Virus genome (UHGV): UHGV-0074612
DNA from: a virus
DNA length: 17,318 nt
Direction: 5' to 3' (one strand)
Made by a program: the position numbers and the translations under genes. Shown one piece after another: positions 1 through 17,268 of this stretch; the stretch's first letter is position 1; the number at the start of each line of letters is the position of its first letter. The notes beneath the pieces are model-generated. The model worked only from the letters and a program-made list of their open reading frames with translations. It was not told the DNA's origin and did no database searches.

Positions 1-49
1 TTATCAATTTGTTGCAACGAACAGGTCACTATCAGTCAAAATAAAATCA
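1..49. other. attL arm: lambda-type attP P' arm with IHF H' site and Int arm-type sites; the core overlap lies just upstream of the window
   Basis: Exact IHF consensus ATCAAnnnnTTG at 3-14; arm-type Int site motifs AGGTCACTAT (23-32) and CAGTCAAAAT (33-42) directly 3' of the int stop; matches my memory of the lambda P' arm. Confidence 0.6.
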
Positions 50-1120
50 TTATTTGATTTCAATTTTGTCCCACTCCCTGCCTCTGTCATCACGATACTG
101 TGATGCCATGGTGTCCGACTTATGCCCGAGAAGATGTTGAGCAAACTTATCGCTTATCTGCTTCTCATAGAGTCTTGCAGACAAACTGCGCAACTCGTGA
201 AAGGTAGGCGGATCCCCTTCGAAGGAAAGACCTGATGCTTTTCGTGCGCGCATAAAATACCTTGATACTGTGCCGGATGAAAGCGGTTCGCGACGAGTAG
301 ATGCAATTATGGTTTCTCCGCCAAGAATCTCTTTGCATTTATCAAGTGTTTCCTTCATTGATATTCCGAGAGCATCAACATGCAATGCTGTTGGGATGGC
401 AATTTTTACGCCTGTTTTGCTTTGCTCGACATAAAGATATCCATCTACGATATCAGACCACTTCATTTCGCATAAATCACCAACTCGTTGCCCGGTAACA
501 ACAGCCAGTTCCATTGCAAGTCTGAGCCAACATGGTGATGATTCTGCTGCTTGATAAATTTTCAGGTATTCGTCAGCCGTAAGTCTTGATCTCCTTACCT
601 CTGATTTTGCTGCGCGAGTGGCAGCGACAGGGTTTGTTGTTATATGGCCTTCAGCTATTGCCTCTCGGAATGCATCGCTCAGTGTTGATCTGATTAACTT
701 GGCTGACGCCGCCTTGCCCTCGTCTATGTATCCATTGAGCATTGCCGCAATTTCTTTTGTGGTGATGTCTTCAAGTGGAGCATCAGGCAGACCCCTCCTT
801 ATTGCTTTAATTTTGCTCATGTAATTTATGAGTGTCTTCTGCTTGATTCCTCTGCTGGCCAGGATTTTTTCGTAGCGATCAAGCCATGAATGTAACGTAA
901 CGGAATTATCACTGTTGATTCTCGCTGTCAGAGGCTTGTGTTTGTGTCCTGAAAATAACTCAATGTTGGCCTGTATAGCTTCAGTGATTGCGATTCGCCT
1001 GTCTCGGCCTAATCCAAACTCTTTACCCGTCCTTGGGTCCCTGTAGCAGTAATATCCATTGTTTCTTATATAAAGGTTAGGGGGTAAATCCCGGCGCTCA
1101 TGACTTCGCCTTCTTCCCAT
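50..1120 (-). CDS. int: Tyrosine integrase, phage lambda Int type
   Basis: 356-aa ORF; N-terminus MGRRRSHERRDLPPNLYIRNNGYYCYRDPRTGKEFGLG and C-terminus match lambda Int as I recall it; adjacent to P' arm; overlaps xis as in lambda. Confidence 0.97.
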   Translation of the reverse strand: MGRRRSHERRDLPPNLYIRNNGYYCYRDPRTGKEFGLGRDRRIAITEAIQANIELFSGHKHKPLTARINSDNSVTLHSWLDRYEKILASRGIKQKTLINYMSKIKAIRRGLPDAPLEDITTKEIAAMLNGYIDEGKAASAKLIRSTLSDAFREAIAEGHITTNPVAATRAAKSEVRRSRLTADEYLKIYQAAESSPCWLRLAMELAVVTGQRVGDLCEMKWSDIVDGYLYVEQSKTGVKIAIPTALHVDALGISMKETLDKCKEILGGETIIASTRREPLSSGTVSRYFMRARKASGLSFEGDPPTFHELRSLSARLYEKQISDKFAQHLLGHKSDTMASQYRDDRGREWDKIEIK

Positions 1121-1316
1121 TTCTGATCCTCTTCAAAAGGCTACCTGTTACTGGTCGATTTAAGTCAACCTTTACCGCTGATTCGTGGAACAGATACTTT
1201 CTTCCATCCTTAACCGGAGGAGGGAATATCCTGCACTCGCGTACCCATCGACGAACTGTTTCAAGGCTTCTTGGGCGTCGCTGGCGTGCGTTCCACTCCT
1301 GAAGTGTCAAGTACAT
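1098..1316 (-). CDS. xis: Excisionase Xis
   Basis: 72-aa ORF MYLTLQEWNARQRRPRSLETVRRWVRECRIFPPP, lambda Xis-like; its 3' end overlaps the int start by 23 nt. Confidence 0.93.
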   Translation of the reverse strand: MYLTLQEWNARQRRPRSLETVRRWVRECRIFPPPVKDGRKYLFHESAVKVDLNRPVTGSLLKRIRNGKKAKS

Positions 1317-1343
1317 CGCAAAGTCTCCGCAATTACACGCAAG

Positions 1344-1363
1344 AAAAAACCGCCATCAGGCGG
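1344..1363 (-). terminator. Possible intrinsic terminator on the minus strand upstream of xis
   Basis: 5-bp GC stem CCGCC/GGCGG (1350-1354/1359-1363) with ATCA loop, followed on the minus strand by T6 (plus-strand A-run 1344-1349). The stem is short. Confidence 0.3.
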
Positions 1364-1429
1364 CTTGGTGTTCTTTCAGTTCTTCAATTCGAATATTGGT
1401 TACATTGTTTTCATATATGAATAAATAAA

Positions 1430-1609
1430 TTAGCTTTTTTCGTTGCCTTCGCGTTCTTTATTAATTTTGACAAACTTGTTTTTACCACGCTCTCCAAATG
1501 CGTCTTTAGAGTCGTTGTATCCGCAATCGCAGCACACATAATCATCAGACCATCCACGCATTGTTTTTTCTTTTGCAATATTTCCAGAACCGCATTTTGG
1601 ACAAGACAT
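1430..1609 (-). CDS. Small C4 zinc-ribbon protein (59 aa; early-left accessory gene)
   Basis: Track ORF 1430..1642 begins at TTG; an internal ATG at 1609 is preceded by GGAGG with a 7-nt spacer. Product MSCPKCGSGN...CCDCGYND carries CxxC...CxxC. Confidence 0.6.
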   Translation of the reverse strand: MSCPKCGSGNIAKEKTMRGWSDDYVCCDCGYNDSKDAFGERGKNKFVKINKEREGNEKS

Positions 1610-1908
1610 ATCACTACCTCCAAAGCATGAGAGAGATGACAACGTAACATTGATTGGAGATTAACAATAGATTGCTGATGTAAAAGATATGTATAAGCTT
1701 AGCTATCAAAGAGGAGGTTCTGGTAGTTGCATCCAGTCGGTTACATTGCGACTCTGTGTTTCGAAAAATTCATCACCATTGCGGACAATATCGAAAAACT
1801 CTCCGTCTCGATATTGCACATAAAGAACGAATGCGCCATCACATAAAATAATTACGTGCTGACCATCATCTGGCATTAGCTCACTACAGCTTATCCAACC
1901 ATCCGGAG

Positions 1909-2352
1909 TTACGGAGAGTTGCCGGGTTCTTTAATGTGCAAACGAGGCTCACCATCTTTTGGTTCAGGCCACTGGCGCTCCATGTTGATCTTCAATTTAT
2001 TTTCCATAGCAGCGGTAATTTCAGCATCACTGATACCAGCACGGCGCTGTGCATCCCACAACAGGAACTGCATATCAGCCCACTCGCTGAGATCGTCAGG
2101 TTCGGCTGCGGCTTCCAGAGCCTCTTTTGAGAGGTGTTTCAGTGGACCAATGGGGCCAACGCAGCCAAATGTGGAGTCAGACCATTTGGCATGCTCGTGG
2201 CGAACCCGCTCGCGTTCCAGTGAGGCGAGAGCGATTTTAAATGCTGTAAGCATGTGTGCTTGATCGTTGTCGAGTCCGAATGGCATTTCATCTCGTGCTG
2301 ACTCAATACTGGTAATCGTATTTTGTAGCCATTCCATGGTAAAAGTGCTCAT
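1909..2352 (-). CDS. Hypothetical early-left protein (147 aa)
   Basis: ATG overlaps the stop of the upstream gene (ATGA at 2349-2352), indicating translational coupling in the leftward operon. No confident family assignment. Confidence 0.6.
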   Translation of the reverse strand: MSTFTMEWLQNTITSIESARDEMPFGLDNDQAHMLTAFKIALASLERERVRHEHAKWSDSTFGCVGPIGPLKHLSKEALEAAAEPDDLSEWADMQFLLWDAQRRAGISDAEITAAMENKLKINMERQWPEPKDGEPRLHIKEPGNSP

Positions 2353-2720
2353 CGTAAAATATCCTCTATACTGGTAAGCCCTTCATTATTTAGCCAGATC
2401 ATTGCGTCATCCGGCAACTTGCTGTCTGGTTTTGCGTTTTTGAGAGAGGAACTCAGTCGCTTAATCCACATTGTCAGCTCAGTAATGCGCCTGTGTTTGC
2501 CTTCCAGCTCAACGCGCAGCCTCCCTACCGTTAGTGCAATATCCTCGTTCTCCTTGTCGCGGCGTTTGACGTATTGCTGGTTTCTTTCCCGTTCATCCAG
2601 CAGTGCCAGCACAATCGATGGTGTTACCAGCTCATGGAAAAGGTCCGCGTCAAATCCCCAGTTGTCATGCATTGCCTGCTCTGCCGCTTCACGCAGTGCC
2701 TGAGAGTTAATTTCGCTCAC
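2349..2720 (-). CDS. Ead/Ea22-like protein (123 aa)
   Basis: N-terminus MSEINSQALREAAEQAMHDNWGFDADLFHELVTPSIV resembles the Ead/Ea22 family N-terminus from memory; start overlaps the stop of the upstream gene. Confidence 0.7.
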   Translation of the reverse strand: MSEINSQALREAAEQAMHDNWGFDADLFHELVTPSIVLALLDERERNQQYVKRRDKENEDIALTVGRLRVELEGKHRRITELTMWIKRLSSSLKNAKPDSKLPDDAMIWLNNEGLTSIEDILR

Positions 2721-2938
2721 TTCGAACCTCTCTGTTTACTGATAAGCTCCAGATCTTCCTGGCAACTTGCACAAGTCCGACAACCCTGAACGGCCAGGCG
2801 TCTTCGCTCATCTATGGGATCGCCACACTCACAACAATGAGTGGCAGATATAGCCTGGTGGTTCAGGCGGCGCATTTTTATTGCTGTGTTGCGCTGTAAT
2901 TCTTCAATTTCTGATGCTGAATCAATGATGTCTGCCAT
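2717..2938 (-). CDS. TraR/DksA-family C4 zinc-finger protein (73 aa)
   Basis: C-terminal CxxC(x17)CxxC: CCECGDPIDERRRLAVQGCRTCASC, typical of TraR/DksA-like zinc fingers. Confidence 0.75.
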   Translation of the reverse strand: MADIIDSASEIEELQRNTAIKMRRLNHQAISATHCCECGDPIDERRRLAVQGCRTCASCQEDLELISKQRGSK

Positions 2939-3036
2939 CTTCCATTAATCCCTGAATTGTTGGTTAATACGCTTGAGGGTGAATGCGAATAATAAAAAAG
3001 GAGCCTGTAGCTCCCTGATGATTTTGCTTTTCATAT

Positions 3037-3318
3037 TCACCGTTCCTTAAAGACGCCGTTTAACATGCCGATCGCCAGGCTTAAATGAGTCGGTGTGAAT
3101 CCCATCAGCGTTACCGTTTCGCGGTGCTTCTTCAGTACGCTACGGCAAATGTCATCGACGTTTTTATCCGGAAACTGCTGTCTGGCTTTTTTGATTTCAG
3201 AATTAGCCTGACGGGCAATACTGCGAAGGGCGTTTTCTTGCTGAGGTGTCACTGAACAAGTCCCATGTCGGCAAGCATAAGCACACAGAATATGAAGCCC
3301 GCTGCCAGAAAAATGCAT
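3037..3318 (-). CDS. Hypothetical ORF (93 aa); doubtful
   Basis: Open frame only; no recognisable Shine-Dalgarno ahead of the ATG at 3318; overlaps the coupled small ORF 3249..3332 in another frame. Confidence 0.35.
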   Translation of the reverse strand: MHFSGSGLHILCAYACRHGTCSVTPQQENALRSIARQANSEIKKARQQFPDKNVDDICRSVLKKHRETVTLMGFTPTHLSLAIGMLNGVFKER

Positions 3319-3332
3319 TCAGTGGTTGTCAT
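3249..3332 (-). CDS. Candidate 27-aa hydrophobic peptide MTTTECIFLAAGFIFCVLMLADMGLVQ
   Basis: Its ATG overlaps the TGA of the orf63-like gene (ATGA at 3329-3332); uninterrupted hydrophobic core. Not in the ORF track because it is under 60 aa. Confidence 0.3.
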   Translation of the reverse strand: MTTTECIFLAAGFIFCVLMLADMGLVQ

Positions 3333-3520
3333 ACCTGGTCTCTCTCATCTGCTTCTGCTTTCGCCACCATCATTTCCAGCTTTTGTGAAAGGGATGCGGC
3401 TAACGTATGAAATTCTTCGTCTGTTTCTACTGGTATTGGCACAAACCTGATTCCAATTTGAGCAAGGCTATGTGCCATCTCGATACTCGTTCTTAACTCA
3501 ACAGGAGATGCTTTGTGCAT
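3329..3520 (-). CDS. Lambda orf63-like small protein (63 aa)
   Basis: Size and position immediately downstream of the orf60a-like gene and exo; sequence feels lambda-like from memory. Confidence 0.7.
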   Translation of the reverse strand: MHKASPVELRTSIEMAHSLAQIGIRFVPIPVETDEEFHTLAASLSQKLEMMVAKAEADERDQV

Positions 3521-3681
3521 ATAGCCCCTCGTTTATTATTTATCTCCTCAGCCAGCCGCTGTGCTTTCAGTGGATTTCGGATAACAGAAAGGCCGGGAAA
3601 TACCCAGCCTCGCTTTGTAACGGAGTAGACGAAAGTGATTGCGCCTACCCGGATATTATCGTGAGGATGCTTCATCGCCAT
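3493..3681 (-). CDS. Lambda orf60a-like small protein (60-62 aa)
   Basis: Directly downstream of exo in the leftward operon; alternative start at Met3 (3675) would give 60 aa. Confidence 0.7.
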
Positions 3682-4352
3682 TGCTCCCCAAATACAAAAC
3701 CAATTTCAGCCAGTGCCTCGTCCATTTTTTCGATGAACTCTGGCACCATTTCGTCAAAACCAGCCATGTATTTTTCATCCCGCTCGACCACGACATAATG
3801 CAGGCCTTCACGCTTCATACGTGGGTCATAGTTGGCAAAGTACCAGGCATCTTTTCGCGTCGCCCACATGCTGAATTGCACCTGGGCCATGTAAGCTGAT
3901 TTTATTGCCTCGAAACCACCGAGCCGGAATTTCATGAAATCCCGGGAGGTAAACGGGCATTTCAGTTCAAGGCCGTTGCCGTCACTGCATAAACCATCGG
4001 GAGAGCAGGCGGTGCGCATACTTTCGTCGCGATAGATGATCGGGGATTCAATAACATTTACGCCGGAAGTGAACTCAAACAGGGTTCTGGCGTCGTTCTC
4101 GTACTGTTTTCCCCAGGCCAGCGCTTTAGCGTTAACTTCCGGAGCCACACCGGTGCAAACCTCAGCCAGCAGGGTGTGGAAGTAGGACATTTTCATGTCA
4201 GGCCACTTCTTTCCTGATCGGGGCTTTGCTATCACGTTGTGAACTTCTGAAGCGGTGATGACGCCGAGCCGTAATTTGTGCCATGCATCATCCCCCTGTT
4301 CGACAGCTCTCACGTCGATCCCGGTACGCTGCAGGATAATGTCCGGTGTCAT
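3672..4352 (-). CDS. exo: Lambda exonuclease (Red alpha)
   Basis: 226-aa [43 protein letters not shown]..., lambda Exo length and sequence as I recall; start overlaps the bet stop. Confidence 0.97.
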
Positions 4353-5134
4353 GCTGCCACCTTCTGCTCAGTGGCTTTCTGTTTCAGGAATCCGAGAGCT
4401 TTCACTGCTTCGACCTGTGTCAGTTCTGACGATGCGCGAATGTCGCGGCGAAATATCTGGGAACAGAGCGGCAATAAGTCGTCATCCCATGTTTTATCCA
4501 GGGCAATCAGCAGAGTGTTAATCTCCTGCATGGTTTCATCGTTAACCGGAGTGATGTCGCGTTCCGGCTGACGTTCTGCAGTGTATGCGGTATTTTCGAC
4601 AATGCGCTCGGCTTCATCCTTGTCATAGATACCAGCAAATCCGAAGGCCAGACGGGCACACTGAATCATGGCTTTATGACGTAACATCCGTTTGGGATGC
4701 GACTGCCACGGCCCCGTGATTTCTCTGCCTTCGCGGGTTTTGAATGGTTCGCGGCGGCATTCATCCATCCACTCGGTAACGCAGATCGGATGATTACGGT
4801 CCTTGCGGTAAATCCGGCATGTGCAGGATTCATTGTCCTGCTCAAAGTCCATGCCATCAAACTGCTGGTTTTCATTGATGATACGGGACCAGCCATCAAC
4901 GCCCACCACCGGAACGATGCCGTTCTGCTTGTCAGGGAAGGCGTAAATTTCTTTCGTCCACGGATTAAGGCCGTACTGGTTGGCGACGATCAACAATGCG
5001 ATGAACTGCGCATCGCTGGCATCGCCTTTAAATGCCGTCTGGCGAAGAGTGGTGATCAGTTCCTGTGGGTCGACAGAATCCATGCCGACACGTTCAGCCA
5101 GCTTCCCAGCCAGCGTTGCGAGTGCTGTACTCAT
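4349..5134 (-). CDS. bet: Single-strand annealing protein Bet (Red beta)
   Basis: 261-aa [53 protein letters not shown]..., lambda Bet length and sequence as I recall. Confidence 0.97.
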
Positions 5135-5139
5135 CCGTT

Positions 5140-5208
5140 TTATACCTCTGAATCAATATCAACCTGGTGGTGAGCAATGGTTTCAACCATGTACCGGATG
5201 TGTTCTGC
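5140..5208 (-). pseudogene. gam: 3'-terminal remnant of gam (last 22 codons plus stop)
   Basis: Minus strand encodes AEHIRYMVETIAHHQVDIDSEV then stop, 5 nt upstream of the bet ATG; matches the lambda Gam C-terminus from memory. Upstream codons (NVS...) diverge and a stop occurs at 5221-5223. Confidence 0.7.
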
Positions 5209-5228
5209 TACATTACTGAGCTAATAAC

Positions 5229-5260
5229 AGGCCTGCTGGTAATCGCAGGCCTTTTTATTT
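5229..5260 (+). terminator. Rho-independent terminator, lambda tR2-like
   Basis: 8-bp stem AGGCCTGC/GCAGGCCT (5229-5236/5245-5252), 8-nt loop, then TTTTTATTT; located just upstream of ninB as tR2 is in lambda. Confidence 0.75.
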
Positions 5261-5276
5261 GGGGGAGAGGGAAGTC

Positions 5277-5717
5277 ATGAAAAAACTAACCTTTGAAATT
5301 CGATCTCCAGCACATCAGCAAAACGCTATTCACGCAGTACAGCAAATCCTTCCAGACCCAACCAAACCAATCGTAGTAACCATTCAGGAACGCAACCGCA
5401 GCTTAGACCAAAACAGGAAGCTATGGGCCTGCTTAGGTGACGTCTCTCGTCAGGTTGAATGGCATGGTCGCTGGCTGGATGCAGAAAGCTGGAAGTGTGT
5501 GTTTACCGCAGCATTAAAGCAGCAGGATGTTGTTCCTAACCTTGCCGGGAATGGCTTTGTGGTAATAGGCCAGTCAACCAGCAGGATGCGTGTAGGCGAA
5601 TTTGCGGAGCTATTAGAGCTTATACAGGCATTCGGTACAGAGCGTGGCGTTAAGTGGTCAGACGAAGCGAGACTGGCTCTGGAGTGGAAAGCGAGATGGG
5701 GAGATCGGGCTGCATGA
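5277..5717 (+). CDS. ninB: NinB (Orf family recombination mediator)
   Basis: Track ORF 5259..5717; ATG at 5277 gives MKKLTFEIRSPAHQQNAIHAVQQILPDP..., lambda NinB-like, preceded by GGAGAGGG. Confidence 0.93.
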   Translation: MKKLTFEIRSPAHQQNAIHAVQQILPDPTKPIVVTIQERNRSLDQNRKLWACLGDVSRQVEWHGRWLDAESWKCVFTAALKQQDVVPNLAGNGFVVIGQSTSRMRVGEFAELLELIQAFGTERGVKWSDEARLALEWKARWGDRAA

Positions 5718-6241
5718 CTATCAAATCAAATACGCCAGCACACGACAAGGACTGCTGGCAAACGCCGCTTTGGCTTTTTGATGCACTGGATATTGAGTTT
5801 GGATTCTGGCTGGATTCGGCAGCGAGCGACAAAAATGCTCTGTGTGCTCACTGGCTAACTGAGGCCGACGACGCGCTCAATTCTGAGTGGGTAAGCCACG
5901 GTGCAATCTGGAATAACCCACCGTACAGCAATATCAGGCCGTGGGTGGAAAAAGCCGCTGAGCAGTGCATACAACAGCGACAGACGGTAGTTATGCTTGT
6001 GCCAGAGGATATGTCAGTCGGATGGTTCAGCAAGGCTCTGGAGAGTGTCGACGAAGTTCGCATTATCACTGATGGACGGATTAATTTTATCGAACCATCG
6101 ACAGGGCTGGAGAAGAAGGGAAACAGCAAAGGCTCCATGCTGCTGATTTGGCGACCGTTCATCAGTCCTCGACGGATGTTTACTACCGTATCCAAAGCGG
6201 CATTGATGGCGATCGGGCAGGGCGTCAGGAGGGCGGCATGA
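5714..6241 (+). CDS. Phage N6-adenine DNA methyltransferase (orphan, no cognate nuclease seen)
   Basis: Start ATGA overlaps the ninB stop; product [26 protein letters not shown]... with NPPY catalytic motif (WNNPPYS). No restriction endonuclease candidate nearby. Confidence 0.85.
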
Positions 6242-6414
6242 GGCGACAGCGACGAAGTTTCACCGACATCATCTGCGAAAACTGCAAATACCTTCCAACG
6301 AAACGCTCCAGAAATAAACGCAAGCCAATCCCAAAAGAATCTGACGTAAAAACCTTCAATTACACAGCTCACCTGTGGGATATCCGGTGGCTAAGATATC
6401 GTGCGAGGAAATGA
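6238..6414 (+). CDS. ninE: NinE
   Basis: Internal ATG at 6238 of track ORF 6148..6414 gives [34 protein letters not shown]..., lambda NinE-like; ATGA overlap with the methyltransferase stop. Confidence 0.8.
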
Positions 6415-6758
6415 CAATGGATTATTCACAGTTAAGTGATTTTGAAATTAACAGAATGGTAGGAGACATAATTTTTAAAGGCCTTTGGGCAAGTAAACCG
6501 GAAACATCAGGGAATAACACCAACAAATGGTATTACGGAAATGCTGATACAACTTTTGAGCCATTAAATCATTTGCCTGACTACTGCAATGATCCGAGCG
6601 CTTCATGGCCGATTATTGAGAAATACAGGATTTCTATCTTAGACCAGTTAACTGAATGGTGTGTGGATGCAAAAGGCGTAAGCCCAATATTTGATACCAG
6701 ACCTCTCCGCGCCGCCATGATTGTCTTTCTCCTGATGCAGGAGGCCAATAATGCTTAG
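6411..6758 (+). CDS. Hypothetical nin-region protein (about 114 aa)
   Basis: Track ORF 6375..6758; in-frame ATGs at 6411 (ATGA overlap with ninE stop) and 6417, with GAGGAA upstream. Confidence 0.65.
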
Positions 6759-6945
6759 CCCATCTCAATCCCTTCAATACCTGAAAGGAAGCATAGAGCG
6801 GGCTTCAATGTGCACAGAGTGGATTCTATCTAGGTTTAGCGCATACAGAAGATTGCCGGTAAAGGGCATGCCAAGCAAGTCGATGCTGCATATGCAAAAG
6901 AATGCGCGCTGGAAGGTATGGCGAGAACACAGGTTATCTGGCTGA
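6751..6945 (+). CDS. Hypothetical small nin-region protein (64 aa)
   Basis: ATG at 6751 preceded by GGAGG with about a 6-nt spacer; fills the gap before rusA. Confidence 0.45.
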
Positions 6946-6964
6946 AAGAGGGGGTTATTAAGGC

Positions 6965-7327
6965 GTGAATACCTACAGCATCACATTACCCTGGCCTCCG
7001 AGCAATAACCGCTACTACCGGCATAATCGCGGGCGCACGCACATCAGCGCAGAAGGGCAGGCATACCGTGATAACGTCGCCCGAATCATTAAAAACGCAA
7101 TGCTGGATATCGGCCTGGCTATGCCTGTGAAAATCCGCATTGAGTGCCACATGCCGGATCGCCGTCGCCGTGACCTGGATAATCTGCAAAAAGCCGCTTT
7201 TGACGCACTCACTAAAGCAGGTTTCTGGCTGGATGATGCTCAGGTCGTTGATTACCGCGTTGTGAAGATGCCTGTTACCAAAGGTGGGAGGCTGGAACTG
7301 ACCATCACCGAAATGGGGAATGAATGA
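6965..7327 (+). CDS. rusA: Holliday-junction resolvase RusA
   Basis: 120-aa [28 protein letters not shown]...; RusA sequence as I recall; GTG start with GAGGGGG upstream. Confidence 0.95.
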
Positions 7328-7464
7328 TGTTTGAGTTTAATATGGCAGAACTTCTTCGCCACCGCTGGGGGCGTCTGCGCTTATATCGTTTCCCCGGTTC
7401 TGTTTTGACCGATTACCGAATACTGAAGAATTACGCCAAAACCCTGACAGGAGCAGGAGTATGA
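7324..7464 (+). CDS. ylcG: Small protein, YlcG-like (46 aa)
   Basis: ATGA overlap with the rusA stop; translation [46 protein letters not shown] matches my recollection of DLP12 YlcG. Under the track size cutoff. Confidence 0.5.
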
Positions 7465-7549
7465 AGTCAGAGATAACAATCAACTAATACTGTTTTGTTG
7501 ATTTTTGCTTGTAATTGGCGTTTTGGTCTGATTTTTGTGGAGTAAGTTG

Positions 7550-7933
7550 ATGCGTGATATTCAGATGGTTCTTGAGCGTTGGGGAGCGTGGGCGGCTAAT
7601 AATCATGAAGATGTGACCTGGTCGTCCATTGCCGCCGGTTTTAAGGGATTAATTCCTTCAAAAGTAAAATCTCGCCCGCAATGTTGTGACGATGACGCGA
7701 TGATCATTTGCGGGTGCATGGCCCGCCTGAAAAAGAACAACAGCGATTTGCACGATTTATTAGTAGATTATTATATAGTCGGTATGACATTCATGTCACT
7801 GGCAGGTAAGCATTGCTGCTCTGATGGTTATATCGGGAAAAGGTTACAAAAGGCTGAGGGCATAATTGAAGGGATGTTAATGGCATTAGATATCCGGTTA
7901 GAGATGGATATCGTTGTTAATAACTCTAATTAA
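7550..7933 (+). CDS. Late-gene antiterminator Q (QuuD-like)
   Basis: Track ORF 7535..7933; ATG at 7550 after GGAGTAAG gives [24 protein letters not shown]... with a Cys-rich zinc-binding region, resembling the DLP12 QuuD antiterminator. Confidence 0.88.
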
Positions 7934-7955
7934 TACGCCAATTATTTACTAAAAG

Positions 7956-7984
7956 TTATTAAAAATGGGGCGTTGAAACGCCCC
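7956..7984 (-). terminator. Intrinsic terminator for the porin transcript (minus strand)
   Basis: GC-rich 7-bp stem GGGGCGT/ACGCCCC (7967-7973/7978-7984) with tetraloop, followed on the minus strand by ATTTTTAATAAC. Confidence 0.6.
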
Positions 7985-8121
7985 CAAAAATAAAGGGTAA
8001 TATATAACAGAAGGTTTATATAGTTAGAAGCAAGGTTGTGCTTCTAAAGGAAGTGGCTTGAGGGAGCCACTTATATGTTGGGGAGGCAAAGCCTCCCACA
8101 ACATATCTTTTAGTAATCAAA
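7956..8121 (-). ncRNA. Highly structured porin 3' region; candidate IpeX-like small RNA
   Basis: Four consecutive stem-loops between the porin stop (8122) and the terminator: 8077-8104, 8051-8072, 8024-8047, 7967-7984. I recall that the DLP12 sRNA IpeX maps just downstream of nmpC; exact boundaries not determinable here. Confidence 0.3.
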
Positions 8122-9204
8122 TTAGAACTGGTAAACCATACCTACAGCAACGATATCATCGGTAGCAACGCCAGATGCTTTCGTGAAATCGCTCTTATCA
8201 ATCAGGTTGATTTTGTAGTCAACAAAAGTGGACATATTTTTGTTGAAGTAATAGGTTGCACCTACATCAACATATTCAACCAGGTCCTGATCACCCCAAA
8301 CACCCAAGTCTTTTCCTTTAGAATGCAGGTAAGCAACGGATGGACGCAGGCCGAAGTCGAACTGATATTGTGCAACAGCTTCGAAGTTTTGTGCTTTGTT
8401 GGCAATATGGTTATTACCAAAAACAGTCATGTTCTGGGTTTCAGAATAGGTGGTGGCCAGATAGATGTTGTTCGCATCATATTTCAGACCAGCTGCCCAT
8501 ACTTCAGCATTTTGACCAGAAGCATTCAGACCGTTGTTACCGTAGATAACCTGATTATTAGTGCGATCAGATTTAGCATAGGTTGCACCCACGCCGAATC
8601 CTTCATACTCATAAGTAGTTGAGAAACCGAAACCATCGCCATTAGCTTCAGTTACTTCATTTCGGTCATTTTTGCCCTGATACTGAGCTGCAAAGTTCAG
8701 GCCATCAACCAGACCAAAGAAGTCGTTGTTACGATAAGTTGCAACACCTGTGGTGCGACCAGTCATGAATACATCTGTTTGGGTCCAGGTATCGCCACCG
8801 AATTCTGGCAGAACGTCGGTCCATGCACCGATGTCGTATGCTACACCGTAGTTACGGCCGTAATCGATGGAGCCGTAGTCACCGAATTTCAGGCCAGCGA
8901 AGGCAAGACGGGTTTTATCTTTGGAGGAACCTTGAGATTCAGCGCGGTTGCCTTTGAATTCATATTCCCACTGACCGAAACCAGTCAGTTGATCGTTGAT
9001 TTGGGTTTCACCTTTGAAGCCAAGACGGGCATAAGTAGTATCACCATCATCTGCATCATTAGAGGAGAAGTAGTGCTTAGCATTAACTTTCCCGTACAGA
9101 TCCAGCTTGTTACTGTCTTTATTATAAATTTCAGCTGCCTGAGCAGACATCGCCATCAGTACTGATGCAGCTACAGCAGAAATTGCCACTGTTAATTTTT
9201 TCAT
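8122..9204 (-). CDS. nmpC: OmpC/OmpF-family general porin, prophage-encoded (NmpC/Lc-like)
   Basis: 360-aa ORF with signal peptide [23 protein letters not shown] then AEIYNKD..., C-terminal VGMVYQF ending in Phe; located between Q and the holin on the opposite strand, as nmpC is in DLP12. Confidence 0.93.
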
Positions 9205-9632
9205 CGTGAGCCCTTTTTTTTGAACTATTATTAAAAAATGATGTCACTGCGCGATAAATATTCATCTAATCAATGTGAATATTTCAAGATGTAAGTTTTG
9301 GTTTCTCGTTTGATTTGTGAAGTAGATCTCTATTTTTATCTGAACTTTTTTCTATCGAATCCTATTCATGGCTCTTGACTGAATAAAAATAAATCTATTA
9401 GCCAATTTATATTAATGGCTGTTATTTATAAGTGCTCTATAATTTGAAGGTTCAATTTAAATTGACTAAAAATAACGCTGGAAATTATTTGTTGGTTATT
9501 TGTTGAGATTTGCTTATGTATTTGTAGTGGTGTTTTCAATACTCGGTAGCATTCTCGCAAATATCATTTAGTGGTTTACGTACGTAAAAAATTGGTTATG
9601 CTGTTAAGAGTGGTTACTTCGTCACACAGCTT

Positions 9633-9666
9633 AAACCCGCCGTCGAGCGGGTTTTTCCATTTTTTG
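9633..9666 (+). terminator. Rho-independent terminator inside the porin-holin intergenic region (tR'-like)
   Basis: 8-bp stem AAACCCGC/GCGGGTTT (9633-9640/9647-9654), 6-nt loop, then TTCCATTTTTTG. No plus-strand gene ends upstream of it. Confidence 0.7.
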
Positions 9667-9777
9667 AGTCTCGATATTAGCTGATAACCCAATACCTGAG
9701 TTATTCACTGACTCCGAGTCTGTTACGTTTCGTAGTATTCCCTCAATTTACACCCGCTTTGTCTGCGAGGTGGGGTT

Positions 9778-9993
9778 ATGAAATCCATGGATAAGTTAAC
9801 AACGGGTGTCGCCTATGGCACCTCAGCAGGTAGTGCCGGGTACTGGTTTTTACAGCTGCTCGATAAAGTCACGCCCTCACAGTGGGCAGCAATAGGTGTG
9901 CTGGGTAGCCTGGTATTTGGCCTGCTGACGTACCTGACAAACCTTTATTTCAAGATTAAAGAAGATAAGCGCAAGGCTGCGAGAGGTGAATAA
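9778..9993 (+). CDS. Phage-21-type pinholin (S21/EssD-like) with dual start motif
   Basis: 71-aa [29 protein letters not shown]...; Met1/Met4 dual start, two TMDs, charged C-terminus; GAGGTGG upstream. Confidence 0.92.
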
Positions 9994-10490
9994 TGCCTCC
10001 ATCATTACGAAAAGCCGTTGCTGCTGCTATTGGTGGCGGAGCAATTGCTATAGCATCAGTGTTAATCACTGGCCCAAGTGGTAACGATGGTCTGGAAGGT
10101 GTCAGCTACATACCATACAAAGATATTGTTGGTGTATGGACTGTATGTCACGGGCATACAGGAAAAGACATCATGCTCGGTAAAACGTATACCAAAGCAG
10201 AATGCAAAGCCCTCCTGAATAAAGACCTTGCCACGGTCGCCAGACAAATTAACCCGTACATAAAAGTTGATATACCGGAAACAACGCGCGGCGCTCTTTA
10301 CTCGTTCGTTTACAACGTGGGCGCTGGCAATTTCAGAACATCGACACTTCTTCGCAAAATAAACCAGGGCGATATCAAAGGCGCATGTGATCAGCTACGT
10401 CGCTGGACATATGCTGGCGGTAAGCAATGGAAAGGTCTCATGACTCGTCGTGAGATTGAGCGTGAAATCTGTTTGTGGGGTCAGCAATGA
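9993..10490 (+). CDS. SAR endolysin (phage-21 R / RrrD-like lysozyme)
   Basis: 165-aa ORF with N-terminal Gly/Ala-rich signal-anchor-release segment [20 protein letters not shown] followed by a lysozyme domain; start overlaps the holin stop. Confidence 0.92.
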
Positions 10491-10945
10491 ACAGAGTAAC
10501 CGCGATTATCTCCGCTCTGGTTATCTGCATCATCGTCTGCCTGTCATGGGCTGTTAATCATTACCGTGATAACGCCATTACCTACAAAGCCCAGCGCGAC
10601 AAAAATGCCAGAGAACTGGAGAAGGCGAACGCCACCATCGCTGACATGCGGAAGCGTCAACGTGATGTAGCAGAACTCGACGCAAGATACACAAAGGAGC
10701 TTGCTGATGCTAACGCGACTATCGAAAGTCTCCGTGCTGATGTTTCTGCTGGGCGTAAGCGCCTGCAAGTCGCCGCCACCTGTGCAAAGTCAACGACCGG
10801 AGCCAGCGGCATGGGCGATGGAGAAAGCCCAGGACTTACAGCAGATGCTGAACTCAATTATTACCGTCTCCGAAGTGGAATCGACAAGATAACCGCGCAG
10901 GTTAACTACCTGCAGGAATACATCAGGACGCAATGCCTGAAATAA
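10487..10945 (+). CDS. Spanin inner-membrane subunit Rz
   Basis: ATG at 10487 (ATGA overlap with endolysin stop) gives [21 protein letters not shown]..., an N-terminal TMD followed by a periplasmic coiled-coil-like region. Confidence 0.88.
10701..10892 (+). CDS. Spanin outer-membrane lipoprotein Rz1, embedded in Rz in the +1 frame
   Basis: 63-aa ORF wholly inside Rz; signal peptide with lipobox VSAC followed by a proline-rich segment [13 protein letters not shown]. Confidence 0.8.
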
Positions 10946-10976
10946 TTTTTTTGCAAATCACAAAGTCCATTTAATG

Positions 10977-11000
10977 AGCCTCGCGATGCGGGGCTTTTTG
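10977..11000 (+). terminator. Lysis-operon terminator 1
   Basis: 8-bp stem AGCCTCGC/GCGGGGCT (one G-U pair) with GAT loop then TTTTG. Confidence 0.55.
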
Positions 11001-11006
11001 CAATAA

Positions 11007-11031
11007 ATGCGTACCGCAACGCATGTTTTTT
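11007..11031 (+). terminator. Lysis-operon terminator 2
   Basis: 6-bp stem ATGCGT/ACGCAT, 6-nt loop, followed by GTTTTTT. Confidence 0.6.
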
Positions 11032-11146
11032 ACACCGAACCTGCCCCTTTGGAATGGGCCTTTGAGGATACCAGTTAGTGCTGGCGAGCCTCGGTGGGCT
11101 GGTTTCCTGTGCGGCAAAGGTTCATTTCAAAGAGTAGGTACACGCT

Positions 11147-11644
11147 ATGAAATCATTAACCCTCTTCAATCAACCAATTCGTATCGGTGAAGATGGCATG
11201 ATCTGCCTCACTGATATGTGGAAAGCCAGTGGTAAAAGTGAATCTGAATCGCCTTACCACTACCTGCGAAACAAGCAGACCAAAGAGTTCTTAGCCGAGC
11301 TGGAGAAAAACCACGAATCTGTGGTTTTTACTGAGCGCGGTGTACACGGTGGAACATATGGCGGGAAGTTTGTTGCTTACGATTATGCGGCTTGGTTAAA
11401 CCCCGGGTTCAAGTACGCGGCCTATAAAGTCCTCGATGACTACTTCACCGGAGAACTTCAGCATCGCAACAGCTTAAGTGCGCAGCTCAACATGAAATGT
11501 CATGAGTTTGACCAGAAGAAAGACATGGCGAGCTTCTGCGGACAAGGGCTGGCAGCATGGCGCTATACGAAGCCAGTGTTGGTCGCTGAGATTAACTCCC
11601 TGGCTAACCAGCTGCAGATTACGATCCCCGGGCTTCCGGGATGA
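11147..11644 (+). CDS. KilA-N/Bro-N-like domain protein (165 aa)
   Basis: N-terminal FNQPIRIGEDGMICLTDMWKASGK fits the KilA-N pattern (F..IR...DG..........A.G) by eye. Confidence 0.65.
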   Translation: MKSLTLFNQPIRIGEDGMICLTDMWKASGKSESESPYHYLRNKQTKEFLAELEKNHESVVFTERGVHGGTYGGKFVAYDYAAWLNPGFKYAAYKVLDDYFTGELQHRNSLSAQLNMKCHEFDQKKDMASFCGQGLAAWRYTKPVLVAEINSLANQLQITIPGLPG

Positions 11645-11910
11645 GTGATCGTGTCATTGAATGCGCCTCCAGAGCGGGGCGCGACTTCTCAGAGTTCATG
11701 AAAGGCGAGAAGGGCATGATGGAAGCATTGGCCTCGGTGGATGAGTTTGGCGAGCAGCTGCGCCTCAACGGCTGTGTCAATCATCACTTTGTTAGCTACA
11801 TGATGCGGAACTCGATCATGCAGGCATTCATGGACATGGCAAAAGCCGAGAGGAAAGAAGAGCGCCGGCGTAAGCGAGCGGAAGCAAAAGCAAAAGCAAA
11901 AGTGAAGTAG
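11641..11910 (+). CDS. Hypothetical protein (89 aa) with Lys/Arg/Ala/Glu-rich C-terminal tail
   Basis: ATGA overlap with the stop of the KilA-N-like gene; C-terminus AKAERKEERRRKRAEAKAKAKVK. Confidence 0.6.
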   Translation: MSDRVIECASRAGRDFSEFMKGEKGMMEALASVDEFGEQLRLNGCVNHHFVSYMMRNSIMQAFMDMAKAERKEERRRKRAEAKAKAKVK

Positions 11911-12966: not shown

Positions 12967-13200
12967 TCAATCTGGTCTAACCTGTTTTCTGAGCAATTCA
13001 GTAATGTCACTCTTTTCTTTGTTTGCTTCAGGCGAAACTCTTTTTTCTGAGCACAGTCTCCGGCGGCAGGCTTCAATGACCCAGGCTGAGAAATTCCCGG
13101 ACCCTTTTTGAACAAGAGCGATGTTAATTTGTTCAATCATTTGGTTAGGAAAGCGGATGTTGCGGGTTGTTGTTCTGCGGGTTCTGTTCTTCGTTGACAT
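12967..13200 (-). CDS. YlcI-like small protein with putative ribbon-helix-helix fold (77 aa)
   Basis: Co-directional and 42 bp upstream of the YbcV-like gene; basic N-terminus then RNIRFPNQMIEQINIALVQKGSGNFSAWVIEACRRRL, which reads like a strand-helix-helix unit. Confidence 0.6.
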   Translation of the reverse strand: MSTKNRTRRTTTRNIRFPNQMIEQINIALVQKGSGNFSAWVIEACRRRLCSEKRVSPEANKEKSDITELLRKQVRPD

Positions 13201-13379
13201 GAGGTTGCCCCGTATTCAGTGTCGCTGATTTGTATTGTCTGAAGTTGTTTTTACGTTAAGTTGATGCAGATCAATTAATACGATACCTGCGTCATAATTG
13301 ATTATTTGACGTGGTTTGATGGCGTAGATGCACGTTGTGACATGTAGATGATAATTATTATCATTTTGCGGGTCCTTTC

Positions 13380-13445
13380 CGGCGATCCGACAGGTTACGG
13401 GGCGGAAGGCGCGCGGGTTTTCGCTATTTATGAAAATTTTCCGGG
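13380..13445. other. cos site region with cosN-like 12-mer at 13400-13411
   Basis: GCGATCCGACAGGTTACG + GGGCGGAAGGCG + CGCGGGTTTTCGCTATTTATGAAAATTTTCCGG; both flanks match the lambda right and left ends as I recall, but the 12-mer differs from lambda GGGCGGCGACCT at its last six positions. Confidence 0.65.
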
Positions 13446-13587: not shown

Positions 13588-13704
13588 ATGAAGGTTAATA
13601 AAAAGAAACTTGCCGAAATTTTCAACGTGGATCCGCGAACGATTGAACGCTGGCAGTCTCAGGGACTCCCTTGCGTCTCCGGAGGTGGCAGCGGGCCATC
13701 ATGA
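13588..13704 (+). pseudogene. Terminase small subunit (Nu1/gp1-like), N-terminal 38-codon stub
   Basis: [38 protein letters not shown] then stop; resembles the Nu1 N-terminal DNA-binding segment (lambda MEVNKKQLADIFGASIRTIQNWQEQGMPVLRGGG). The frame ends where terminase A homology begins. Confidence 0.75.
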
Positions 13705-14570
13705 ATGCGATGGGCAGTGACTACATCCGCGAGGTGAATGTGGTGAAGTCTGCCCGTGTTGGTTATTCCAAAATGCTGCTGGGTGTTTATGCCTACTTCA
13801 TAGAGCATAAGCAGCGCAACACCCTTATCTGGTTGCCGACGGATGGTGATGCCGAGAACTTTATGAAAACCCACGTTGAGCCGACTATTCGTGATATTCC
13901 GTCGCTGCTGGCGCTGGCCCCGTGGTATGGCAAAAAGCACCGGGATAACACGCTCACCATGAAGCGTTTCACTAATGGGCGTGGCTTCTGGTGCCTGGGC
14001 GGTAAAGCGGCAAAAAACTACCGTGAAAAGTCGGTGGATGTGGCGGGTTATGATGAACTTGCTGCTTTTGATGATGATATTGAACAGGAAGGCTCTCCGA
14101 CGTTCCTGGGTGACAAGCGTATTGAAGGCTCGGTCTGGCCAAAGTCCATCCGTGGCTCCACGCCCAAAGTGAGAGGCACCTGCCAGATTGAGCGTGCAGC
14201 CAGTGAATCCCCGCATTTTATGCGTTTTCATGTTGCCTGCCCGCACTGCGGGGAGGAGCAGTATCTTAAATTTGGCGACAAAGAGACGCCGTTTGGCCTC
14301 AAATGGACGCCGGATGACCCCTCCAGCGTGTTTTATCTCTGCGAGCATAATGCCTGCGTCATCCGCCAGCAGGAGCTGGACTTTACTGATGCCCGTTATA
14401 TCTGCGAAAAGACCGGGATCTGGACCCGTGATGGCATTCTCTGGTTTTCGTCATCCGGTGAAGAGATTGAGCCGCCGGACAGTGTGACCTTTCACATCTG
14501 GACGGCGTACAGCCCGTTCACCACCTGGGTGCAGATTGTCAAAGACTGGATGAAGACGAAAGGGGATACC
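13689..14570 (+). pseudogene. Terminase large subunit A, internal fragment (about residues 58-350 of lambda gpA)
   Basis: Track ORF 13671..14630; [50 protein letters not shown]... through ...[14 protein letters not shown] is lambda gpA as I recall. It lacks the gpA N-terminus and C-terminal half; the frame then runs into J-derived sequence out of frame. Confidence 0.85.
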
Positions 14571-14571
14571 C

Positions 14572-15883
14572 GAACACGGCACTGGTCGGCGTGCAGGTGG
14601 ACTCGGAGCAGTTCGGCAGCCAGCAGGTGAGCCGTAATTATCATCTGCGCGGGCGCATTCTGCAGGTGCCGTCGAACTATAACCCGCAGACGCGGCAATA
14701 CAGCGGTATCTGGGATGGAACGTTTAAGCCAGCATACAGCAACAACATGGCCTGGTGTCTGTGGGATATGCTGACCCATCCGCGCTACGGCATGGGGAAA
14801 CGTCTTGGTGCAGCAGATGTGGATAAATGGACGCTGTATGTCATCGGCCAGTACTGCGACCAGTTGGTACCGAATGGTTTTGGCGGCACGGAGCCGCGCA
14901 TCACCTGTAATGCCTGGCTGACCACACAGCGTAAGGCGTGGGATGTGCTCAGTGATTTCTGCTCGGCGATGCGCTGTATGCCGGTATGGAACGGGCAGAC
15001 GCTGACGTTCGTGCAGGACCGACCATCAGATAAGGTGTGGACCTATAACCGCAGTAATGTGGTGATGCCGGATGATGGCGCGCCGTTCCGCTACAGCTTC
15101 AGCGCCCTGAAGGACCGCCATAATGCCGTTGAGGTGAACTGGATTGACCCGAACAACGGCTGGGAGACGGCGACAGAGCTTGTTGAAGATACGCAGGCCA
15201 TTGCCCGTTACGGTCGTAATGTCACGAAGATGGATGCCTTTGGCTGTACCAGCCGGGGGCAGGCACACCGCGCCGGGCTGTGGCTGATTAAAACGGAACT
15301 GCTGGAGACGCAGACCGTGGATTTCAGCGTGGGTGCTGAAGGGCTTCGCCATGTACCGGGCGATGTCATTGAAATCTGCGATGATGACTATGCCGGTATC
15401 AGCACCGGTGGTCGCGTGCTGGCGGTGAACAGCCAGACCCGGACGCTGACGCTCGACCGTGAAATCACGCTGCCATCTTCCGGCACCACGCTGATAAGCC
15501 TGGTTGACGGGCAGGGGAGTCCGGTCAGCGTGGAGGTTCAGTCCGTCACCGACGGACTTAAGGTGAAAGTGAACCGGGTTCCTGACGGCGTTGCAGAATA
15601 CAGTGTGTGGGGGCTGAAGTTGCCGACGTTGCGTCAGCGCCTGTTCCGCTGTGTGAGTATCCGTGAGAACGATGACGGCACGTATGCCATCACTGCCGTG
15701 CAGCATGTACCGGAAAAAGAAGCCATCGTGGATAACGGGGCGCACTTTGACGGCGACCAGAGCGGCACGGTGAATGATGTCACGCCGCCAGCGGTGCAGC
15801 ACCTGACTGCCGAAGTCACCGCAGACAGCGGGGAATATCAGGTGCTGGCGCGCTGGGACACGCCGAAGGTGGTGAAGGGGGTG
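14572..15883 (+). pseudogene. Tail tip protein J, internal fragment
   Basis: Track ORF 14591..16687 begins at a GTG inside J-like sequence ([28 protein letters not shown]...). J homology runs to ...[12 protein letters not shown]; the J N-terminal third and C-terminal receptor-binding region are absent. Confidence 0.85.
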
Positions 15884-16687
15884 AAGGCACATTACAGAAA
15901 TGGAGGTCTGTTCTACCGTTCCTCAAGAGATGGCTATGGTTTTGAGGAAGACTGGGCAGAAGTTTATACCTCGAAAAATCTTCCACCAGAAAGCTACCCA
16001 GTCGGCGCACCAATCCCGTGGCCATCAGATACCGTTCCGTCTGGTTATGCCCTGATGCAGGGGCAGACTTTTGACAAATCTGCATACCCGAAACTTGCAG
16101 CCGCTTATCCGTCAGGCGTGATCCCTGATATGCGTGGCTGGACGATTAAGGGCAAACCTGCCAGTGGTCGCGCCGTATTGTCTCAGGAACAGGACGGCAT
16201 TAAATCGCACACCCACAGCGCCAGCGCATCCAGTACGGATTTGGGGACGAAAACCACATCGTCGTTTGATTACGGAACCAAATCCACGAATAACACCGGG
16301 GCGCATACCCATAGTATTAGCGGGACCGCAAATAGTGCCGGCGCGCACCAACACAAGAGTTCCGGTGCATTTGGTGGCACGAACACGAGCATTTTCCCTA
16401 ATGGTTATACCGCGATTTCAAATCCAAGCGCGGGGATTATGAGCACAACAAGCGGTAGTGGTCAGACTCGTAATGCAGGGAAGACATCATCAGATGGTGC
16501 TCATACCCACTCGCTGTCCGGCACTGCTGCAAGCGCAGGCGCACATGCACATACTGTCGGTATTGGTGCTCATACGCACTCCGTTGCGATTGGCTCACAT
16601 GGACACACCATCACCGTTAACGCTGCGGGTAACGCGGAAAACACCGTCAAAAACATCGCATTTAACTATATTGTGAGGCTTGCATAA
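15884..16687 (+). pseudogene. Side tail fibre (Stf-like) C-terminal region, fused in frame to the J fragment
   Basis: ...[45 protein letters not shown]... with repeated Gly/His boxes ([30 protein letters not shown]) and C-terminus [11 protein letters not shown], typical of lambda Stf and T4 gp37-type fibre tips. Confidence 0.8.
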
Positions 16688-17268
16688 TGGCATTCAGAAT
16701 GAGTGAACAAGCACGGACCATAAAAATTTATAATCTGCTGGCCGGAACTAATGAATTTATTGGTGAAGGTGACGCATATATTCCGCCTCATACAGGTCTG
16801 CCAGCAAACAGTACCGATATTGCACCACCAGATATTCCGGCAGGCTTCGTGGCTGTTTTCAACAGTGATGAGGCATCGTGGCATCTCGTTGAAGACCATC
16901 GGGGGAAAACGGTTTATGACGTAGCGTCAGGGGACGAGTTATTTATTTCTGAACTCGGTCCGTTACCGGAAAATGTTACCTGGTTATCGCCGGGAGGGGA
17001 ATATCAGAAGTGGAACGGCACAGCCTGGGTGAAGGATACGGAAGCAGAAAAACTGTTCCGGATCCGGGAGGCGGAAGAAACAAAAAACAGCCTGATGCAG
17101 ATAGCCAGTGAGCATATAGCGCCGCTTCAGGATGCTGTGGATCTGGAGATCGCAACGGAGGAAGAAACCTTGTTGCTGGAAGCCTGGAAAAAGTATCGGG
17201 TGTTGCTGAACCGTGTTGATACATCAACTGCACCGGATATTGAATGGCCAGTAGCACCTATAGGGTAA
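16687..17268 (+). CDS. tfa: Tail fibre assembly protein Tfa
   Basis: 193-aa [42 protein letters not shown]...; start overlaps the stop of the upstream tail-fibre ORF; lambda Tfa-like length and sequence as I recall. Confidence 0.9.

Follow-up and report, generated by a model that had tools for sequence, protein, structure and literature searches.

A deletion scar joining a gam remnant to the tR2-ninB region in a cryptic lambdoid prophage of Escherichia coli

The cryptic lambdoid prophages Rac, DLP12 and Qin of Escherichia coli K-12 are about 20 kb long after internal deletions, are non-inducible and have lost their structural genes. Rac keeps racR and a silent exonuclease/annealase pair, recE/recT, which is expressed only after activating sbcA mutations. 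DLP12 carries a Q-porin(nmpC)-essD-rrrD-Rz block and nu1/J fragments, and the DLP12-type nu1-J scar is present in E. coli B, C and ATCC 8739. Defective prophages with intact exo and bet, also located at att-lambda, are used in recombineering (lambda cI857 delta(cro-bioA), DY380-type); these strains keep pL, N, gam and cI857 for switching on Red, and their deletion runs from cro rightward into bioA. The nin5 deletion of lambda takes the P-Q interval, including tR2 and ninB-ninH, and spares the immunity and replication genes.

The DNA analyzed here (the window, the whole 17,318 nucleotides of UHGV virus genome UHGV-0074612) belongs to a prophage integrated at att-lambda of E. coli, between ybhC and ybhB-bioA, with a length of approximately 20.55 kb from core to core. 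This element belongs to the deletion-decayed cryptic lambdoid prophages and is, as a kind of feature, ordinary. It is chromosomal and lies between a recognisable attL and attR; it is collinear with the intact phages ev099, lambda and IdasGreatGrand except for the missing blocks, and genes are truncated at the joins (gam, nu1/A, A/J and J/stf). The essential lytic and lysogenic modules are gone (no cI, cro, cII, N, O or P, and no head genes), and the same scars occur in independent samples, as in vertical inheritance within a host lineage. Like Rac, the element keeps an exonuclease/annealase pair, although of the Red (exo/bet) and not of the RecET type, and like DLP12 it has the same block from Q through the porin to Rz, as well as nu1/J fragments. 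By contrast with Rac it lacks any repressor, and its site (ybhC/ybhB) is not that of Rac, DLP12 or Qin. Since the remaining DNA is 97–100% identical to functional phages and there are no IS insertions in the window, the element is much younger than those three.

Compared with the recombineering prophages, the window element has lost the control region and gam and has kept the nin-Q-lysis arm and bioA. An engineered prophage of that type was considered and rejected, the element being a natural variant (95–98% identity to lambda) from gut metagenomes. The pattern is also opposite to that of nin5, and a deletion of the nin5 type was rejected: the element keeps tR2 and ninB, both identical to lambda, whereas it lacks the immunity and replication genes. 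Nor is the element a functional lambda Red system; only the final 22 codons of gam are left, and pL, oL, nutL and N, the basis of pL transcription with N antitermination, are deleted. Finally, it resembles the “grounded” prophages, that is, a lysogen lineage whose prophage cannot enter the lytic cycle, an outcome that is presumably favored, as the cost of induction is then removed. Grounding has been attributed mainly to defects in att, int and xis (PMC6379469), whereas the window element has kept int, xis and both att cores intact and is blocked at the level of regulation and replication. Moreover, the repressor is lost too, so that no superinfection immunity would be left.

The first-pass annotation had described the region 5135–5260 as a deletion scar, in which a gam 3′ remnant directly abuts the sequence preceding tR2 and ninB, and had expected two blocks of lambda homology to meet near 5208/5209. 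This description proved accurate to the base. Local BLAST was performed against lambda (NC_001416, 27000–48502, L001) and Escherichia phage ev099 (NC_049953, L002). Window positions 2502–5208, containing exo, bet and the last 22 gam codons, matched lambda 30177–32884 with 97.0% identity; positions 5208–5717, which start 5 nt past the ren stop codon (TGA) and contain tR2 and ninB, matched lambda 40575–41084 with 99.6% identity. The E-values of both blocks were effectively zero, so a chance match is no concern. The deletion junction therefore lies at 5208..5209, where lambda 32884 is joined to 40575 and ev099 32612 to 39514, and the multiple alignment and the print-out of the junction revealed a single base common to both parents at the breakpoint, the C at 5208. 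The junction is followed on the plus strand by a 20-nt spacer (5209..5228) that aligned with lambda 40576–40595, between the ren stop codon and tR2 in that phage. Overall, lambda was 95–99% identical to the window over the parts in common, and ev099 was the nearest sequenced phage, with approximately 97–98% identity across the common blocks.

The segment absent from the window corresponds to bases 32885–40574 of lambda (7,690 bp) or 32613–39513 of ev099 (6,901 bp). Its left part holds the rest of gam, kil, cIII, ea10, ral, sieB, N, nutL and pL/oL; the remainder holds rexAB (a NYN-domain gene in ev099), cI, oR/pR, cro, nutR, cII, O with ori, P and ren. The intact relatives ev099, ET220 and lambda have the order gam-kil-...-cI-cro-cII-O-P-ren-ninB between the same flanks. 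As the true parent phage was not found, the size of the deletion and the set of lost genes are estimated from relatives with 97–98% identity, and the genes lost from the real parent probably differ slightly from those of lambda (ev099, for instance, lacks rex). The proteins encoded by the missing segment in lambda and ev099 were used as tblastn queries against the window and against three related contigs, one of which extends to ybhC (L003) and two through attR into ybhB-bioABFCD (L019 and L005). No match at E≤0.01 was obtained in these sequences for kil, cIII, ea10, ral, sieB, N, rexA/B or the NYN-domain gene, nor for cI, cro, cII, O, P or ren. Bet, Exo, NinB and the Gam C-terminus, searched as positive controls, were each detected. 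Hence, the absence of repressor, N and replication genes that had been proposed from the window sequence extends from attL to attR, with no cI/cro region elsewhere in the prophage or in its two flanks, and pL and pR fall within the deleted lambda interval.

The gam remnant (5140..5208, minus strand) consists of the last 22 codons plus the stop codon. Its translation, AEHIRYMVETIAHHQVDIDSEV, is exactly that of the final 22 residues of lambda Gam (117–138), and the tblastn search detected only Gam residues 115–138. The remnant has no start codon, and an in-frame stop is found 5 codons upstream. The two neighboring genes, predicted to be intact in the initial reading, are indeed full length. The bet gene (4349..5134, minus strand) encodes the Red-beta ssDNA annealing protein of 261 aa, with 2 aa differences from lambda Bet and a Pfam RecT match at 2.8e-33; the protein was complete and identical in six other contigs of the lineage. 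The exo gene (3672..4352, minus strand) is a full-length ORF encoding the lambda exonuclease of 226 aa, with 7 aa differences from lambda Exo and a Pfam YqaJ match at 9.5e-28. No internal stop was present in exo in the six other lineage contigs covering it, where L003 holds the complete gene and the remaining five the first 217 of the 226 codons.

Additionally, all 11 differences between the window and L003 over 11.8 kb were located within 3741–3897, a stretch of 157 nt in the 3′ part of exo. They amount to 4 amino-acid changes that are lacking in six other contigs of the lineage, and by its sequence this patch looks like gene conversion from another lambdoid exo allele. Further clusters of SNPs among the lineage members were observed at 12979–13211 and 16905–17148.

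To the right of the junction, the intrinsic terminator tR2 (5229..5262, plus strand; hairpin 5229–5252) has an 8-bp GC-rich stem, an 8-nt loop and a T tract. It was detected in the terminator scan, its sequence is identical to that of lambda according to the alignment, and its fold gave −16.9 kcal/mol. The same hairpin read on the minus strand gave −21.9 kcal/mol and is followed by GUUAUUAG, without a U tract. The right-hand arm, which has lost pR, starts with an intact ninB (5277..5717, plus strand), which encodes the Orf recombination mediator of 146 aa, 100% identical to lambda NinB (Pfam NinB, 2e-54). Besides ninB, the genes as far as Q are intact, and so are int, xis, the porin moron and the lysis cassette.

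The first reading had also noted no obvious promoter for exo and bet, and computationally this holds: no sigma-70-like site was found on the minus strand at 5135–7769, that is, for approximately 2.6 kb upstream of bet, nor with a relaxed threshold of 8/12 matches on the minus strand of the 660 nt at 5135–5800. A consensus scan of this kind may miss weak, non-sigma-70 or activator-dependent promoters. The only minus-strand candidate is a strong promoter-like site running from 7799 to 7770 (GTGACA-18-TATAAT, 11/12 matches) inside Q (7550–7933). It points leftward, antisense to Q and the nin genes, and a transcript from it would be antisense to eight genes; no intrinsic terminator was predicted between this site and bet. 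Its likeness to the antisense promoter paQ of lambda is one of position only.

A porin gene of the OmpC/NmpC/OmpD type (8122–9204, minus strand, 360 aa; Pfam Porin_1/Porin_4) lies between Q and the holin gene, as it does in DLP12, ev099 and phage 434. A terminator-like hairpin of this gene was found at 7984 to 7967, and the porin represents an intact moron in an otherwise dead prophage.

Beyond the window, the attL core GCTTTTTTATACTAA was located in L003 (IMGVR_UViG_3300039332_000035), adjoining ybhC, at 25–39 nt to the left of window position 1. This contig is 99.9% identical to window 1–11839 and extends 1.37 kb past position 1. The attR core, with one mismatch, was found in L019, adjoining ybhB-bioA; the right end, covered by L005 and L019, consists of tfa, an AraC-family gene, IS fragments, the att core with its mismatch, ybhB and bioABFCD. 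An 89-aa protein at 11641–11910 was tried as a left-flank anchor and discarded because it was too widespread (2,187 blocks) and retrieved only unrelated intact lambdoid and P22-like prophages.

Three further scars, missed in the first reading, were identified in the window. At 13688/13689, a phage-21-like nu1 (terminase small subunit) breaks off after approximately 33 codons and continues into A; the loss relative to phage IdasGreatGrand (L025, 622 joined to 1210) is about 587 bp, without microhomology. At 14567–14569, terminase A (ev099 1748) is joined to J (ev099 16124) with the microhomology TAC, and approximately 14.4 kb is gone relative to ev099, comprising all head and most tail genes; this join creates a chimeric ORF of 309 aa (13701–14630), which has 50 indexed blocks in the protein collection and serves well to mark the lineage. 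At 15882–15884, J (ev099 17441) is joined to stf (ev099 22318) with the microhomology TGA and a loss of approximately 4.9 kb, leaving an open J′-Stf′ ORF of 698 aa (14591–16687) that was found in 15 contigs. Together with the gam junction, the losses sum to approximately 26.8 kb (6.9 + 0.6 + 14.4 + 4.9 kb) and account for the difference between the 47.2 kb of ev099 and the remnant of about 20.55 kb. The 0–3 nt of homology at the four joins are the signature of illegitimate recombination. The 12-nt cohesive end of cosN (13400–13411) is also altered: it reads GGGCGGAAGGCG instead of the canonical GGGCGGCGACCT, with five of the six bases at 13406–13411 changed. The window and each of the 9 lineage contigs that extend to this position carry the altered form, whereas the canonical form was found in every intact relative examined, including IdasGreatGrand, which is 97% identical. 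As a guess, this clustered change close to the nu1 scar might stem from error-prone repair of an in situ terminase cut.

In E. coli REL606 (551067–553128), the prophage at the DLP12 position has its terminase small-subunit gene joined directly to J, and equivalents occur in E. coli C and ATCC 8739. Since this scar differs from that of the window, independent head/tail deletions with similar endpoints recur in lambdoid remnants.

The distribution of the gam-tR2 junction was analyzed in several collections. None of the 5,426 complete E. coli genomes covered a 401-nt junction query to at least 80%, although one half or the other was carried by 3,693 of them, and the two blocks were adjacent in none of 50,697 phage records; the arrangement is thus not that of a different lambdoid phage, which was an objection foreseen when the scar was first described. 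The junction-spanning 32-mer ACCGGATGTGTTCTGCTACATTACTGAGCTAA had no match among the GTDB species-representative genomes or the JGI metagenome contigs and matched one IMG/VR contig. When related contigs were retrieved with the fusion ORFs of two of the other scars as lineage probes, the exact 32-mer was found in at least 8 contigs besides the window, its carriers being L003, L005, L006, L007, L019, L020, L022, L023 and L024. The carriers came from human-gut metagenomes, JGI sample 3300039332, the MAG GCA_948144105.1 and the NCBI drafts GCA_016856385.1 and GCA_008041115.1.

In every contig reaching the site, exo-bet directly adjoins ninB, and all lineage contigs reaching the three other joins carry them; the junction and the three other scars were common to 9–11 contigs from different samples. 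Each contig differed from the window by 9–19 SNPs per 12.7 kb (a divergence of approximately 0.1%, mostly in recombination patches), so they represent independent samples of one lineage. An exact junction in independent contigs, each with its own SNPs, rules out an assembly chimera and places the fixation of the deletion before the diversification of the lineage. No complete E. coli genome combined the three other scars with an intact immunity region, the best matches being different defective prophages with scars of their own. Therefore, the deletion is inherited and lineage-specific, and is neither an assembly artefact nor a native phage layout. As far as the collections examined show, this scar is undescribed and confined to one E. 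coli lineage, for which the 32-nt junction offers a convenient marker.

The locus is very probably the product of an illegitimate deletion in a lambda-like prophage at att-lambda, which left an apparently promoterless, locked-in and harmless cryptic remnant. The deletion would have removed approximately 6.9–7.7 kb in one piece, from gam codon 116/117 to 5 nt past the ren stop codon. What is left over would be two divergent promoterless arms, bet-exo-...-xis-int leftward and tR2-ninB-...-Q rightward, separated by approximately 140 bp that consist of the gam stump and tR2. In lambda, transcription of exo, bet and xis-int normally starts at pL and is antiterminated by N, with pI, which depends on cII, as a second promoter for int; the nin-Q genes are read from pR through tR2, again with N. 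Since these signals and factors were deleted, both arms would be orphaned. Without pL, pR, N and cII, the element is expected to be non-inducible and non-replicating, with no kil expression; its own signals should not transcribe exo, bet, int, xis or the nin-Q genes, and with Q absent the late and lysis genes would be off. Thus, exo and bet are presumably silent, and co-resident prophages could act on the element in trans.

The endpoints also lie just outside the genes by which a derepressed lambda kills its host, kil on the left and O/P (P/ren) on the right. The loss of cI would be survivable only if kil, N-dependent expression and in situ replication by O/P went too, and because these host-killing functions were removed together with cI, the observed span may be what a viability filter would pass. 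The selective background is likely to be the cost that prophage induction carries in the gut. Gut selection for inactivated prophages has been described, with an induction cost documented for lambda (PMC4752277), and “grounded” prophages express the same general idea (PMC6379469).

Several other origins of the junction were weighed. The gap might have arisen by at least two successive smaller deletions, for example cI-P at first and an erosion of gam later, and the fact that the same prophage gained at least three other independent deletions speaks in favor of this. However, no intermediate was found among the complete genomes or the sampled contigs, the latter all having the four scars, and from lambda genetics the loss of cI with kil/N or O/P still expressed would probably be lethal, which favors a single event; a stepwise origin thus seems unlikely, while retaining some small plausibility. 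Were the gene order native to an unsampled lambdoid phage, or to a satellite without immunity and replication genes of its own, this would fit the mosaic nature of lambdoid phages and the retention of int, xis, both att sites and the cos region, by which a helper could in principle mobilise the element. A native order is nevertheless very improbable: gam is a 22-codon stump that lacks a start codon and follows an in-frame stop, the junctions also cut nu1, A, J and stf, and the cohesive end is mutated at 5/12 positions relative to every intact relative. Furthermore, a 20.5 kb element is far under the packaging range of lambda, the order occurs in no phage record searched, and the flanking blocks are 97–100% identical to ordinary lambdoid phages. 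A satellite of the PICI type was rejected, given the lack of replication and regulatory genes, the mutated cosN and the four truncated phage genes at the junctions. Practically negligible is the chance that metagenome assembly produced a chimera of two lambdoid prophages. The window is absent from every complete genome searched, and lambdoid prophages are repeat-rich and can be mis-joined by metagenome assemblers; but the identical 32-nt junction is present in at least 9 contigs from differing samples, assemblers and sources (ENA, JGI and NCBI isolate drafts), each with its own SNPs and all with the same three other scars, the join involves no repeat (1 nt in common), and the contigs are continuous from ybhC to bioD.

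A different question is whether exo and bet, together with ninB and rusA, form a domesticated recombination cassette that is kept by selection and would be expressed from the antisense site in Q or a cryptic promoter, or would come into use when related phages superinfect. In the lineage contigs that reach these genes, Bet is complete and Exo shows no stop even though four deletions took approximately 27 kb around them, the candidate promoter in Q is followed by no predicted terminator before bet, and the clustered SNPs at 3741–3897, 12979–13211 and 16905–17148 resemble gene-conversion patches, which means that the element and its relatives do exchange DNA. For lambda and defective prophages, exchange that depends on Bet has been documented (PMC3945230, PMC4752277). 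However, at a divergence of about 0.1% the intact ORFs carry no statistical weight for selection, and intact exo and bet in all copies fit a young deletion just as well as selection to keep them. The candidate promoter lies at a distance of 2.6 kb, its untranslated antisense RNA would be a typical Rho target and would have to cross the reversed tR2 hairpin (−21.9 kcal/mol), and gene-conversion patches can equally be made by host RecA or by the recombinase of an incoming phage. We consider domestication rather improbable. The four deletions took every lethal or structural function and spared a contiguous, apparently functional series of recombination genes, in which exo and bet directly abut ninB/orf, followed by dam and rusA; that this promoter-orphaned Red/Orf/RusA set (exo, bet, ninB/orf, dam, rusA) drives the patchy gene conversion through expression at a low level or during superinfection is an idea to which we assign a distinctly low probability.

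Under the preferred reading of a single illegitimate deletion, the att-lambda element would be a non-inducible, non-replicating remnant that prophage predictors should not score as an active phage. It would also be a clean, young case in which one viable deletion took the lambdoid repressor and every gene that is lethal after its loss. Moreover, it provides a natural strain background with exo and bet intact on the chromosome and uncoupled from pL, a modestly useful test case for the expression of orphaned Red genes in wild E. coli. Beyond annotation its importance is slight, as this is an ordinary cryptic prophage. The L003 copy, which includes the host gene ybhC, is catalogued by IMG/VR as a viral genome; a dead prophage has thus been counted as a virus.

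Regarding the rest of the window, an accessory region to the left of exo (1404–2676) is unlike lambda and ev099 and has 98.9% identity to the prophage located at att-lambda in E. coli ET220. Its gene products are a small zinc-finger/Lar-like protein, a DUF551 protein, a dATP/dGTP pyrophosphohydrolase and an Ead/Ea22-like protein. No RNA genes were detected at the junction site by the Rfam and tRNA scans. A full-length match to the Rfam family IS009 (RF02111) was found at 17030–17228 on the plus strand, inside tfa (16687–17268), with 221.5 bits against a gathering score of 117.
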